From Escherichia coli (GTDB taxonomy: Bacteria > Pseudomonadota > Gammaproteobacteria > Enterobacterales > Enterobacteriaceae): a stretch of 64,000 bases of DNA. Position 1 is the first letter of the stretch; each line of letters opens with the position of its first letter. The stretch lies in NCBI RefSeq assembly GCF_003334315.1, contig NZ_QOWR01000003.1; one strand, given 5' to 3'. Shown in pieces: positions 19,061 through 22,077 of the stretch. The notes below the pieces were generated by a model. It was not told the origin of the DNA, searched no databases, and was given only the letters and a program-made list of their open reading frames with translations. The position numbers and the translations under genes are program-made.

Positions 19061-20923
19061 ATGAGTTTTGATATTGCCAAATACCCGACCCTGGCACTGG
19101 TCGACTCCACCCAGGAGTTACGACTGTTGCCGAAAGAGAGTTTACCGAAACTCTGCGACGAACTGCGCCGCTATTTACTCGACAGCGTGAGCCGTTCCAG
19201 CGGGCACTTCGCCTCCGGGCTGGGCACGGTCGAACTGACCGTGGCGCTGCACTATGTCTACAACACCCCGTTTGACCAATTGATTTGGGATGTGGGGCAT
19301 CAGGCTTATCCGCATAAAATTTTGACCGGACGCCGCGACAAAATCGGCACCATCCGTCAGAAAGGCGGTCTGCACCCGTTCCCGTGGCGCGGCGAAAGCG
19401 AATATGACGTATTAAGCGTCGGGCATTCATCAACCTCCATCAGTGCCGGAATTGGTATTGCGGTTGCTGCCGAGAAAGAAGGCAAAAATCGCCGCACCGT
19501 CTGTGTAATCGGCGATGGTGCGATTACCGCAGGCATGGCGTTTGAAGCGATGAATCACGCGGGCGATATCCGTCCTGATATGCTGGTGGTTCTCAACGAC
19601 AATGAAATGTCGATTTCCGAAAATGTCGGCGCGCTCAACAACCATCTGGCGCAGCTGCTTTCCGGTAAGCTTTACTCTTCACTGCGCGAAGGCGGGAAAA
19701 AAGTTTTCTCTGGCGTTCCGCCAATTAAAGAGCTGCTCAAACGCACCGAAGAACATATTAAAGGCATGGTAGTGCCTGGCACGTTGTTTGAAGAGCTGGG
19801 CTTTAACTACATCGGCCCGGTTGACGGTCACGATGTGCTGGGGCTTATCACCACGCTTAAGAACATGCGCGACCTGAAAGGCCCGCAGTTCCTGCATATC
19901 ATGACCAAAAAAGGTCGTGGTTATGAACCGGCAGAAAAAGACCCAATCACTTTCCACGCCGTGCCTAAATTTGATCCCTCCAGCGGTTGTTTGCCGAAAA
20001 GTAGCGGCGGTTTGCCGAGCTATTCAAAAATCTTTGGCGACTGGTTGTGCGAAACGGCAGCGAAAGACAACAAGCTGATGGCGATTACTCCGGCGATGCG
20101 TGAAGGTTCCGGCATGGTCGAGTTTTCACGTAAATTCCCGGATCGCTACTTCGACGTGGCAATTGCCGAGCAACACGCGGTGACCTTTGCTGCGGGTCTG
20201 GCGATTGGTGGGTACAAACCCATTGTCGCGATTTACTCCACTTTCCTGCAACGCGCCTATGATCAGGTGCTGCATGACGTGGCGATTCAAAAGCTTCCGG
20301 TCCTGTTCGCCATCGACCGCGCGGGCATTGTTGGTGCTGACGGTCAAACCCATCAGGGTGCTTTTGATCTCTCTTACCTGCGCTGCATACCGGAAATGGT
20401 CATTATGACCCCGAGCGATGAAAACGAATGTCGCCAGATGCTCTATACCGGCTATCACTATAACGATGGCCCGTCAGCGGTGCGCTACCCGCGTGGCAAC
20501 GCGGTCGGCGTGGAACTGACGCCGCTGGAAAAACTACCAATTGGCAAAGGCATTGTGAAGCGTCGTGGCGAGAAACTGGCGATCCTTAACTTTGGTACGC
20601 TGATGCCAGAAGCGGCGAAAGTCGCCGAATCGCTGAACGCCACGCTGGTCGATATGCGTTTTGTGAAACCGCTTGATGAAGCGTTAATTCTGGAAATGGC
20701 CGCCAGCCATGAAGCGCTGGTCACCGTAGAAGAAAACGCCATTATGGGCGGCGCAGGCAGCGGCGTGAACGAAGTGCTGATGGCCCATCGTAAACCAGTA
20801 CCCGTGCTGAACATTGGCCTGCCGGACTTCTTTATTCCGCAAGGAACTCAGGAAGAAATGCGCGCCGAACTCGGCCTCGATGCCGCTGGTATGGAAGCCA
20901 AAATCAAGGCCTGGCTGGCATAA
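19061..20923 (+). CDS. dxs: 1-deoxy-D-xylulose-5-phosphate synthase
   Basis: 620-aa transketolase-like ORF with TPP-binding motif [17 protein letters not shown]. Confidence 0.97.
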
Positions 20924-20931
20924 TCCCTACT

Positions 20932-21098
20932 CCACTCCTGCTATGCTTAAGAAATTATTCATAGACTCTAAATAATTCGAGTTGCAGGAAGGCGGCAAAC
21001 GAGTGAAGCCCCAGGAGCTTACATAAGTAAGTGACTGGGGTGAACGAATGCAGCCGCAGCACATGCAACTTGAAGTATGACGAGTATAGCAGGAGTGG
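20932..21098. repeat. ERIC (IRU) element
   Basis: Contains GTGAAGCCCCAGGAGCTTACATAAGTAAGTGACTGGGGTGAACG, which carries both ERIC primer sequences (ERIC1R complement and ERIC2) with one mismatch each as I recall them; bounded by 13-bp perfect terminal inverted repeats CCACTCCTGCTAT / ATAGCAGGAGTGG. Confidence 0.8.
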
Positions 21099-21102
21099 CA
21101 GC

Positions 21103-22077
21103 ATGCAATACAACCCCTTAGGAAAAACCGACCTTCGCGTTTCCCGACTTTGCCTCGGCTGTATGACCTTTGGCGAGCCAGATCGCGGTAATCACGCATG
21201 GACACTGCCGGAAGAAAGCAGCCGTCCCATAATTAAACGTGCACTGGAAGGCGGCATAAATTTCTTTGATACCGCCAACAGTTATTCTGACGGCAGCAGC
21301 GAAGAGATCGTCGGTCGCGCACTGCGGGATTTCGCCCGTCGTGAAGACGTGGTCGTTGCGACCAAAGTGTTCCATCGCGTTGGTGATTTACCGGAAGGAT
21401 TATCCCGTGCGCAAATTTTGCGCTCTATCGACGACAGCCTGCGACGTCTCGGCATGGATTATGTCGATATCCTGCAAATTCATCGCTGGGATTACAACAC
21501 GCCGATCGAAGAGACGCTGGAAGCCCTCAACGACGTGGTAAAAGCCGGGAAAGCGCGTTATATCGGCGCGTCATCAATGCACGCTTCGCAGTTTGCTCAG
21601 GCACTGGAACTCCAAAAACAGCACGGCTGGGCGCAGTTTGTCAGTATGCAGGATCACTACAATCTGATTTATCGTGAAGAAGAGCGCGAGATGCTACCAC
21701 TGTGTTATCAGGAGGGCGTGGCGGTAATTCCATGGAGCCCGCTGGCAAGGGGCCGTCTGACGCGTCCGTGGGGAGAAACTACCGCACGACTGGTGTCTGA
21801 TGAGGTGGGGAAAAATCTCTATAAAGAAAGCGATGAAAATGACGCGCAGATCGCAGAGCGGTTAACAGGCGTCAGTGAAGAACTGGGGGCGACACGAGCA
21901 CAAGTTGCGCTGGCCTGGTTGTTGAATAAACCGGGCATTGCCGCACCGATTATCGGAACTTCGCGCGAAGAACAGCTTGATGAGCTATTGAACGCGGTGG
22001 ATATCACTTTGAAGCCGGAACAGATTGCCGAACTGGAAACGCCGTATAAACCGCATCCTGTCGTAGGATTTAAATAA
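21103..22077 (+). CDS. yajO: Aldo-keto reductase YajO
   Basis: 324-aa product MQYNPLGKTDLRVSRLCLGCMTFG... from ATG at 21103; SD AGGAG lies inside the ERIC terminal repeat. Confidence 0.92.
   Translation: MQYNPLGKTDLRVSRLCLGCMTFGEPDRGNHAWTLPEESSRPIIKRALEGGINFFDTANSYSDGSSEEIVGRALRDFARREDVVVATKVFHRVGDLPEGLSRAQILRSIDDSLRRLGMDYVDILQIHRWDYNTPIEETLEALNDVVKAGKARYIGASSMHASQFAQALELQKQHGWAQFVSMQDHYNLIYREEEREMLPLCYQEGVAVIPWSPLARGRLTRPWGETTARLVSDEVGKNLYKESDENDAQIAERLTGVSEELGATRAQVALAWLLNKPGIAAPIIGTSREEQLDELLNAVDITLKPEQIAELETPYKPHPVVGFK

Follow-up and report, generated by a model that had tools for sequence, protein, structure and literature searches.

We examined the spacer between the dxs and yajO genes in a 64,000-nucleotide stretch of Escherichia coli DNA (contig NZ_QOWR01000003.1, referred to below as the window), which holds a copy of the enterobacterial repetitive intergenic consensus (ERIC), also called the intergenic repeat unit (IRU). 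The best explanation of the whole, and one that we consider probable, is that the spacer encodes a native stem-loop that sequesters the Shine-Dalgarno (SD) sequence of yajO, and that ERIC was inserted in the loop of this hairpin, where it is tolerated rather than domesticated. The repeat itself donated no translation signal. It would sit in a loop, where a self-folding insert spares the signal, and would illustrate the tolerance of ERIC elements in transcribed spacers. The segment is 100% identical to that of E. coli K-12 MG1655, and published K-12 data are therefore directly applicable to it. The spacer and the genes that border it contain the following features.

19061-20923, plus strand: dxs, encoding 1-deoxy-D-xylulose-5-phosphate synthase, with the stop codon TAA at 20921-20923 (open reading frame (ORF) list and RefSeq annotation of the identical K-12 sequence).
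20932-20944, plus strand: left arm of the native hairpin, CCACTCCTGCTAT, beginning 8 nucleotides past the dxs stop (sequence, repeat search, and ERIC-less alleles).
20935-20939, plus strand: anti-SD CUCCU, inside the left arm and belonging to the invariant CTCCTGCTATGCTT block.
20945-20961, plus strand: native loop sequence GCTTAAGAAATTATTCA, which remains on the left side of the insertion (filled alleles aligned with empty ones).
20962-21088, no strand assigned: ERIC/IRU element of 127 bp, TAGACTC...GAGTATA (alignment to three other ERIC loci, allele length difference, and Rfam V_AS5 match).
21009-21040, no strand assigned: central inverted repeat of ERIC, CCCCAGGAGCTTAC/GTAAGTGACTGGGG, the tip of the ERIC hairpin (repeat search and core search).
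21086-21098, plus strand: right arm of the native hairpin, ATAGCAGGAGTGG, of which the first 3 nucleotides are the ERIC end and the remainder is native.
21091-21095, plus strand: yajO SD, AGGAG, native, 7 nucleotides before the ATG and paired with 20935-20939.
21103-22077, plus strand: yajO, encoding an aldo/keto reductase of 324 amino acids, with its annotated start at the ATG at 21103 (ORF list and RefSeq).

An earlier note on this DNA had placed the arms, the ERIC core, the AGGAG, and the ATG, and these positions proved correct to the base. Four nucleotides, CAGC, separate the right arm from the yajO ATG. A repeat search returned an outer inverted repeat of 16 nucleotides with 94% complementarity (20932-20947 and 21083-21098), and two ERIC arm pairs were detected inside it.

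The arms of the hairpin are present in E. coli strains that lack the repeat. A 481-nucleotide junction query matched all 5,426 of the 5,426 complete E. coli genomes searched. Full query coverage, as expected of an ERIC-filled site, was seen in 2,844 of them, and the remainder matched in two pieces with a span of 356 bases instead of 481. The filled and empty alleles therefore differ in length by 125 bp, and ERIC is absent from the site in approximately 48% of complete E. coli genomes. The empty alleles of sequence type 131 (ST131), O145:H28, and A0 34/86 read CCACTCCTGCTATGCTTAAGAAATTATTCATGGCAGGAGTGGCAGCATG, in which the arms, the SD, and the spacing are all present. The ERIC-less E. coli keep CAGGAGTGGCAGCATG together with the upstream CCACTCCTGCTAT, and other genera retain the identical CAGGAGTGGCAGCATG context as well. 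Since ERIC-less genomes keep the arms, the SD, and the spacing, the arms are not the terminal repeats of ERIC, as the earlier note had taken them to be; an AGGAG-to-ATG context retained in genomes that lack the element was the very outcome that the note had named as refuting its reading. Its claim that the repeat was the source of the yajO ribosome-binding site, and had been domesticated, is contradicted by the position of the SD, which lies wholly in native flanking DNA.

The arms had also been described as exact complements. They are so at 13 of 13 positions in the window and in K-12, but the perfect match is limited to one allele class; other E. coli carry ATGGCAGGAGTGG, which leaves a G.U pair at one position, and the stem of the empty alleles has one G.U where K-12 has A-U. 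In six further filled alleles the right junction was either GAGTATGGCAGG (G-type) or GAGTATAGCAGG (A-type). The A at this junction, which at 21088 makes the arm repeat perfect, occurs in about 62% of filled genomes, and GAGTATGGCAGG occurs in about 38%. ERIC itself hardly varies among the filled alleles at dxs-yajO, and this suggests one recent insertion event.

The element is a genuine ERIC/IRU copy, as the earlier note had recognized. Its core, GTGAAGCCCC...GGGGTGAACG at 21003-21046, occurs in a single copy in the window and in none of 100 shuffled sequences, and over its full length the element is 92-95% identical to the copies at yafP-rtcB, ybhJ-ybhI, and yeiS-preT. ERIC elements have been described as approximately 127 bp long, with 7-bp terminal inverted repeats and 5'-TA-3' at both termini (PMC2229807 Table 1; PMC3184786). 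When the window copy was aligned with the three other loci, similarity started at TATACTC and stopped at GAGTATA, and the flanks were unrelated. The right end in the window, GAGTATA, is exact, and the left end, TAGACTC, has one mismatch relative to TATACTC. Because these are the termini of ERIC at the other loci, the 13-nucleotide arms lie outside the element except for an overlap of 3 nucleotides with the right arm (ATA, 21086-21088). Used as a query, the 127 bases of the element found a median of six megablast places per E. coli genome; ERIC is thus multi-copy, and like other copies this one is intergenic and present or absent between strains. The ERIC family as such is absent from Rfam. The ERIC-like family V_AS5 (RF02818) matches 20961-21084 end to end (model positions 1-129, E = 4e-10) with a score of 52.5 bits, short of the gathering score of 96.

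For other taxa we used two sets of loci. Ten were found through YajO homologues, whose contigs were then looked up, and this protein-anchored set is unbiased with respect to the arms. It includes Citrobacter koseri, Citrobacter amalonaticus, Citrobacter freundii, Salmonella enterica, Scandinavium, and two further Enterobacteriaceae, in which dxs is directly followed by yajO. The ten spacers are 56-60 nucleotides long and have no ERIC, and all ten contain CTCCTGCTATGCTT and CAGGAG[T/C]GG, with the start codon 6-7 nucleotides beyond. The second set consists of 88 further loci from metagenomes, found with a DNA pattern made up of the dxs end and the left arm, with the E. coli variant excluded. 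None of these 88 pattern-selected loci had an insertion between dxs and yajO, and in the 98 loci from outside E. coli there was no ERIC at the site.

Among 45 distinct spacers CAGGAG is invariant and lies 6-7 nucleotides from the start codon, so that AGGAG is very likely the yajO SD, as had been proposed. All 45 fold with the SD in a stem, with energies of -19 to -39 kcal/mol. Higher up, the hairpin varies by lineage yet stays paired (UUAAAC/GUUUAA, AAAGG/CCUUU, AAGGGUAC/GUACCCUU, GCUUAA/UUAAGC). In a 40-sequence alignment, 81.6% of cells were paired, compared to 34-53% when the partners were slid; two-sided changes occurred at five pairs; and the pair flanking the SD (20-65) was GC in 18 sequences, GU in 15, and AU in 3. 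The covariation score was above that of 500 out of 500 shuffles, and RNAalifold predicts a nine-pair SD/anti-SD helix. These results are consistent with a native stem-loop common to the Enterobacteriaceae, in which a 5' arm, CCACUCCUGCUAU, would pair with a 3' arm, AU[A/G]GCAGGAGUGG, that holds the yajO SD. With the SD inside the 3' arm, the hairpin would sequester the yajO ribosome-binding site.

Folding of the filled allele suggests how this arrangement could survive the insertion. The 201-nucleotide RNA from 20915 to 21115 has a predicted energy of -81.2 kcal/mol (z = -7.2), and none of 200 shuffled sequences was as stable; transcripts that cross the spacer are thus predicted to carry a large hairpin, in agreement with the earlier note. 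The native stem closes around a long inner ERIC hairpin in both the minimum-energy and the centroid structures. ERIC, which about half of E. coli (K-12 and the window among them) would have acquired at the 3' edge of the loop, is a long imperfect palindrome that folds on itself, so that the native stem can still close around it. For RNAs running from 20931 to +30 of yajO, the predicted pairing probability of the SD was 1.0 in each of five alleles (empty, G-type, A-type, GGGAG, and a 78-bp-longer form). The insertion would therefore be expected to leave the SD, its spacing, and its sequestration unaltered. The predicted cost of forcing the ribosome-binding window open is 25.8 kcal/mol for the empty allele, compared to 15.5 kcal/mol for the filled one, which is cheaper to open since its left arm, once released, can pair anew within ERIC. 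Two SD-like decoys within ERIC, GCAGGAAG and CCAGGAGC, are predicted to pair with the anti-SD with energies of -11.1 and -9.7 kcal/mol, compared to -22.9 kcal/mol for the true arm. The decoys appeared only in partial-length folds. Release of the SD by them would be at most transient during transcription, and we rejected it as a mechanism. At equilibrium, the models place ERIC as a passenger in the loop.

The anatomy, polymorphism, conservation, predicted folds, and promoter geometry reported here come from our own analysis. For the RNA 3' end, the Rho effect, the antisense start, and the double-stranded RNA (dsRNA) we relied on published work, and the causal links drawn to them are proposals. 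The features involved are the following.

20916-20924, plus strand: putative yajO promoter, extended -10 TGGCATAAT, overlapping the dxs stop (CATAAT at 20919-20924, TG at 20916-17).
20931, plus strand: inferred 5' end of the yajO leader, 1 nucleotide before the left arm and the first gene-specific base of primer JW10397.
21103, plus strand: dominant RNA 3' end in Term-seq data, located on the A of the yajO ATG, 5 nucleotides past the stem; 438135(-) in NC_000913.3.
20511-21076, minus strand: published antisense transcript, overlapping ERIC, the left arm, and 412 nucleotides of the dxs 3' end.
20883-21069, no strand assigned: dsRNA cluster S-43 (Huang et al. 2020).
21083-21091, minus strand: putative antisense extended -10 TGCTATACT, with TATACT from the ERIC terminal repeat and TG from the native arm (GCAGG).

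Adams and coworkers (bioRxiv 10.1101/2020.07.18.207399, supplementary files 1 and 3) reported the 3' end at 438135(-) with a score of 38352, a Rho score of 2.89, and an intrinsic-terminator score of 1.03 (below 3). The sequence that they print puts this end on the A of the yajO ATG, and in the NC_000913.3 annotation yajO occupies 437161-438135. The same authors found that a transcriptional fusion of the yajO 5' untranslated region (UTR) and ORF was more than 2-fold up in rhoR66S, and they cloned "the entire 5' UTR" of yajO from TCCACTCCTGC (primer JW10397, supplementary file 4). The geometry of TGGCATAAT would fit a start at 20931, and we tentatively assign it as the -10 element. The Cappable-seq and SMRT-Cappable-seq supplements contained no starts near the locus. 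yajO RNA is approximately 25-fold below dxs RNA (expression units of 8-35 for yajO compared to 300-800 for dxs; Huang et al. 2020, PMC7373196).

We propose that yajO is poorly translated owing to its sequestered SD, and that the untranslated yajO RNA would be prone to Rho-dependent termination. Trimming would then shorten the RNA as far as the foot of the composite hairpin, which is very stable, and the same structure would cap transcripts coming from dxs. Rho termination and trimming together could produce both the 3' end published for the A of the ATG and the low level of yajO RNA relative to dxs RNA. In A-type alleles ERIC would add an antisense RNA that pairs with the sense RNA, feeds RNase III, and may further lower the sense RNA. 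One anatomy would in this way tie together three K-12 observations: the 3' end at the yajO start codon, the Rho sensitivity of yajO, and the dsRNA cluster S-43, labelled "New AS".

The antisense RNA is listed in Table S1 of PMC7373196, which gives a transcription start site (TSS) from Thomason at 437386(+) in NC_000913.2, equivalent to window position 21076 on the minus strand, and an antisense unit from Conway at 437387-437951, equivalent to 21075 to 20511. Window positions were calculated as 20923 + (437539 - coordinate), with yajO at 436385-437359 and dxs at 437539-439401 in NC_000913.2, and the conversion was checked against the gene table of PMC7373196 and against NC_000913.3. Cluster S-43 (437,393-437,579 in NC_000913.2) was found among RNase III dsRNAs captured with p19, where it was the fourth most abundant coding cluster and was labelled "yajO, dxs, New AS" (PMC7373196 Table 2). 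Abundant S-43 duplexes of 21-22 nucleotides lie at 20978-21068, inside ERIC, and include locus-specific bases. ERIC is not mentioned in Huang et al. 2020 (PMC7373196). Antisense RNA from 21076 would account for the abundant S-43 cluster.

With +1 at 21076 (A), TATACT lies at -12 to -7 and TG at -15/-14, and the start, 7 nucleotides below TGCTATACT, gives the canonical geometry of an extended -10 promoter. None of the three other ERIC loci has the TG. At the same position the empty allele reads TGCCATGAA, which has no -10, and the G-type filled alleles read TGCCATACT. Given that the TG is missing from other ERIC loci and the -10 from the empty allele, the antisense RNA is most simply a by-product of the dxs-yajO junction, with the ERIC end and the native TG acting together as its candidate promoter. 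Such a putative antisense promoter is the one thing that ERIC clearly adds.

Several other features of the element bear on transcription. Read inward, each end of the consensus of the aligned ERIC copies, including that of the window, is TATACT, which agrees with the -10 hexamer at 5/6 positions, so that every copy would carry two inward-facing -10-like hexamers; at dxs-yajO the left one is weakened to TAGACT. An antisense start from Dornenburg, 437493(+), corresponds to 20969 on the minus strand at the left end of ERIC (PMC7373196). This start is weak, having been sequenced a single time and matching the -10 hexamer at 1/6 positions, and we did not rely on it. On the plus strand, a promoter scan called TTAAGA-18 nt-AATAAT at 20947-20976. 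Since its first hexamer is in the native loop and its second is in the left end of ERIC, this promoter would exist only in filled alleles; we found no start-site support for it. Two minus-strand ORFs of 92 and 52 codons (20927-21205 and 20955-21113) traverse ERIC inside the published antisense transcript. Reviews have remarked on open frames in copies of ERIC (PMC2229807).

Several points weigh against the explanation of a sequestering native hairpin with ERIC in its loop. Repression of yajO by sequestration of its SD is a prediction from thermodynamic folding. The fusion that revealed the Rho effect had a foreign promoter and contained the 5' UTR and the ORF, so that its signal is not localised to the hairpin, and the leader 5' end at 20931 comes from a cloning primer rather than from a TSS table. 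Covariation is thin, and the six central pairs, which never vary, carry no information on the structure. The pattern that picked the metagenome loci requires the left arm, which leaves the ten protein-anchored loci as the only unbiased ones. In all ten of these, CTCCTGCTATGCTT, mostly followed by AA (20935-20950), is invariant while the pairing partners beyond the SD vary. The left arm and GCUUAA are conserved beyond the needs of pairing, which makes an additional or different sequence-specific role likely. On the insertion history the alleles point both ways. The K-12 type has TTCA-TA-[123 bp]-TA-GCAGG, the pattern that duplication of a TA target would leave, but the sampled empty alleles read TTCATGGCAGG, CATGG without the TA target, and about 38% of filled alleles end in GAGTATGGCAGG, although ERIC has been reported to duplicate TA. 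An in-silico excised query for a TA-bearing empty allele (TTCATAGCAGG) returned joined matches from filled genomes that swamped the ranking.

The invariant CTCCTGCTATGCTT block contains an AUG and an extended -10-like motif, TGnTATGCT. An upstream ORF from the invariant AUG at 20943 was considered and rejected. It has no SD, it is in the stem, and its length and product range from 4 codons to very long between taxa.

The filled or empty state had no obvious link to serotype lineage. O111:H8 is filled, and O104:H4, O157:H7, O145:H28, and ST131 are empty, where a call of empty was inferred from the best ERIC match lying elsewhere in the genome. Recombination or more than one event may lie behind this pattern.

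The strongest of the alternatives is that the hairpin is mainly a 3'-end element of the xseB-ispA-dxs transcript, a terminator or exonuclease barrier that stabilises dxs mRNA, with the pairing of the SD as a by-product. This alternative would accommodate the single strong 3' end that Term-seq gives downstream of dxs, 5 nucleotides past the stem, as well as the steep fall in RNA from dxs to yajO and the extreme stability of the composite hairpin. The site does not resemble an intrinsic terminator: there is no U-run, the stem is followed by CAGCAUGCAAUAC, the plus-strand terminator scan was empty, and the intrinsic-terminator and Rho scores are those given above. Moreover, the stem is made precisely of SD and anti-SD in every taxon. 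We consider it doubtful that the 3'-end role is the main one, but it is compatible with sequestration of the SD, and the two overlap rather than exclude each other.

It is also possible, if unlikely, that the 47-nucleotide yajO leader is an undescribed cis-regulatory RNA, widely conserved in Enterobacteriaceae and composed of the invariant CUCCUGCUAUGCUUAA, a variable upper helix, and CAGGAG, which would gate synthesis of YajO in response to some signal, through regulated release of the SD and Rho attenuation, and which ERIC would have rewired in half of E. coli. Of everything at the locus, only the excess conservation of CUCCUGCUAUGCUUAA could conceal something of greater interest. If this were true, the rewiring would consist of the SD-like decoys, an opening cost lower by 10 kcal/mol, and the antisense promoter, and the polymorphism between filled and empty alleles would change expression of yajO and possibly of dxs.

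Two further alternatives are less likely. The first, which we find improbable, is that ERIC occupancy is ancient, the empty E. coli alleles having arisen by excision or deletion and the Salmonella and Citrobacter loop being a remnant of the right end of ERIC. The Salmonella loop, CTTGAAGAGTGACGGGTATA, matches the last 20 nucleotides of ERIC (21068-21088) at 17 of 20 positions and adjoins the right arm at the junction seen for ERIC, and a deletion from CTTAAG (20946) to CTTGAAG (21069) in a filled allele would give a loop of the Salmonella length, 26 nucleotides. However, once the invariant block is left out, the p value of the match is 0.002 per sequence, a borderline result given 45 tests, and no other taxon gave a significant match. 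The empty E. coli loops resemble that of the outgroup Scandinavium, none of the 98 loci from outside E. coli is filled, and the near-invariance of the filled alleles points to a recent event.

The second is that the invariant block of the left arm is conserved as DNA, with TGCTATGCT (20939-20947) serving as an extended -10 for yajO transcripts that start near 20954, lack the anti-SD, and are freely translated. TGnTATGCT does have the key -10 positions (T-12, A-11, and T-7) together with the TG, and the block stays constant even where the sequences that pair with it differ. Our promoter scan did not call TGCTATGCT, the leader of Adams and coworkers starts upstream at 20931, and no TSS near 20954 appears in any text that we searched. 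In addition, GCUUAA pairs with a downstream UUAAGC in many taxa, which suggests a role in RNA. We regard this promoter as very unlikely.

Finally, the model of the earlier note, in which the 13-nucleotide repeats are the termini of ERIC and the insertion brought the AGGAG of yajO, is almost certainly wrong: the 13-mers of K-12 are perfectly complementary and bracket the ERIC core, and the last 3 nucleotides of ERIC do contribute to the right arm, with the A at 21088 perfecting the repeat, but the arms, SD, and spacing are present without ERIC in empty E. coli and in at least seven other taxa, and at three other loci ERIC ends at TATACTC/GAGTATA amid unrelated flanks.

Taken as a sequestering hairpin with a tolerated ERIC in its loop, the locus resembles several known systems. 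The ERIC is like described copies (PMC2229807, PMC3184786) in its length, terminal repeats with TA at both ends, central palindrome, multi-copy and intergenic occurrence, co-transcription, and predicted long RNA hairpin. It differs in one left-terminal mismatch (TAGACTC) and in its particular landing site, the loop of a pre-existing hairpin, whose empty allele is without the TA. Like the SD-sequestering, Rho-attenuated leaders of Adams et al. (bioRxiv 10.1101/2020.07.18.207399), the yajO leader has an upstream anti-SD held in a stable stem, an RNA 3' end at the start of the ORF, and a Rho-sensitive reporter. It differs from them in having no known ligand, small RNA, protein, or temperature signal, and its stem, at about -23 to -28 kcal/mol, is too stable for a simple thermometer. 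The end-to-end alignment of the window ERIC with V_AS5 (Vibrio antisense RNA AS5) indicates that this Vibrio RNA, also annotated as antisense, is ERIC-like. Several stem pairs differ and the score is below gathering, and the window ERIC is a relative of that family and not a member. The candidate antisense promoter is comparable to the hybrid promoters at insertion-sequence junctions and the promoters of Correia/NEMIS elements (PMC3184786), in which a -10 in the terminal repeat is joined to flanking bases. In contrast to those, it faces inward and would transcribe ERIC in antisense, and the flank gives only the TG of the extended -10.

We found no published description of the yajO leader hairpin, no Rfam family that matched it, and no paper that combined ERIC with yajO. 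The ERIC is ordinary, and the hairpin belongs to a common class of SD-occluding leaders. The synthesis at this locus, a transposable element of the miniature inverted-repeat class in a conserved hairpin with a hybrid antisense promoter and a 52/48 polymorphism, appears to be new but unsurprising in kind.

The enzyme encoded by dxs is the flux-controlling one of the methylerythritol phosphate (MEP) pathway of isoprenoid synthesis, and the yajO product is an alternative, or back-up, enzyme for the formation of 1-deoxy-D-xylulose 5-phosphate (DXP) that has been used in terpenoid engineering. The approximately 52/48 split of E. coli for ERIC is a natural test of its effect on these two neighbours.

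Some filled alleles carry further changes. In some E. coli, such as strain E5, the ERIC at dxs-yajO is lengthened by 78 bp through an internal insert of four small hairpins between 21048 and 21049, around which the native stem is still predicted to close. The sequence of this insert occurs in 646 of the 5,426 genomes, at 1-3 places each; about 121 genomes match at 99% or higher, probably at dxs-yajO, and 523 match at 90-95% at other loci. Two A-type filled alleles have AGCGGGAG in place of AGCAGGAG (21090-21095), which changes the SD from AGGAG to GGGAG and keeps the pairing through a G.U pair. In strain 2013C-3250, which has a filled allele, yajO contains an internal stop and is marked as a pseudogene in RefSeq.

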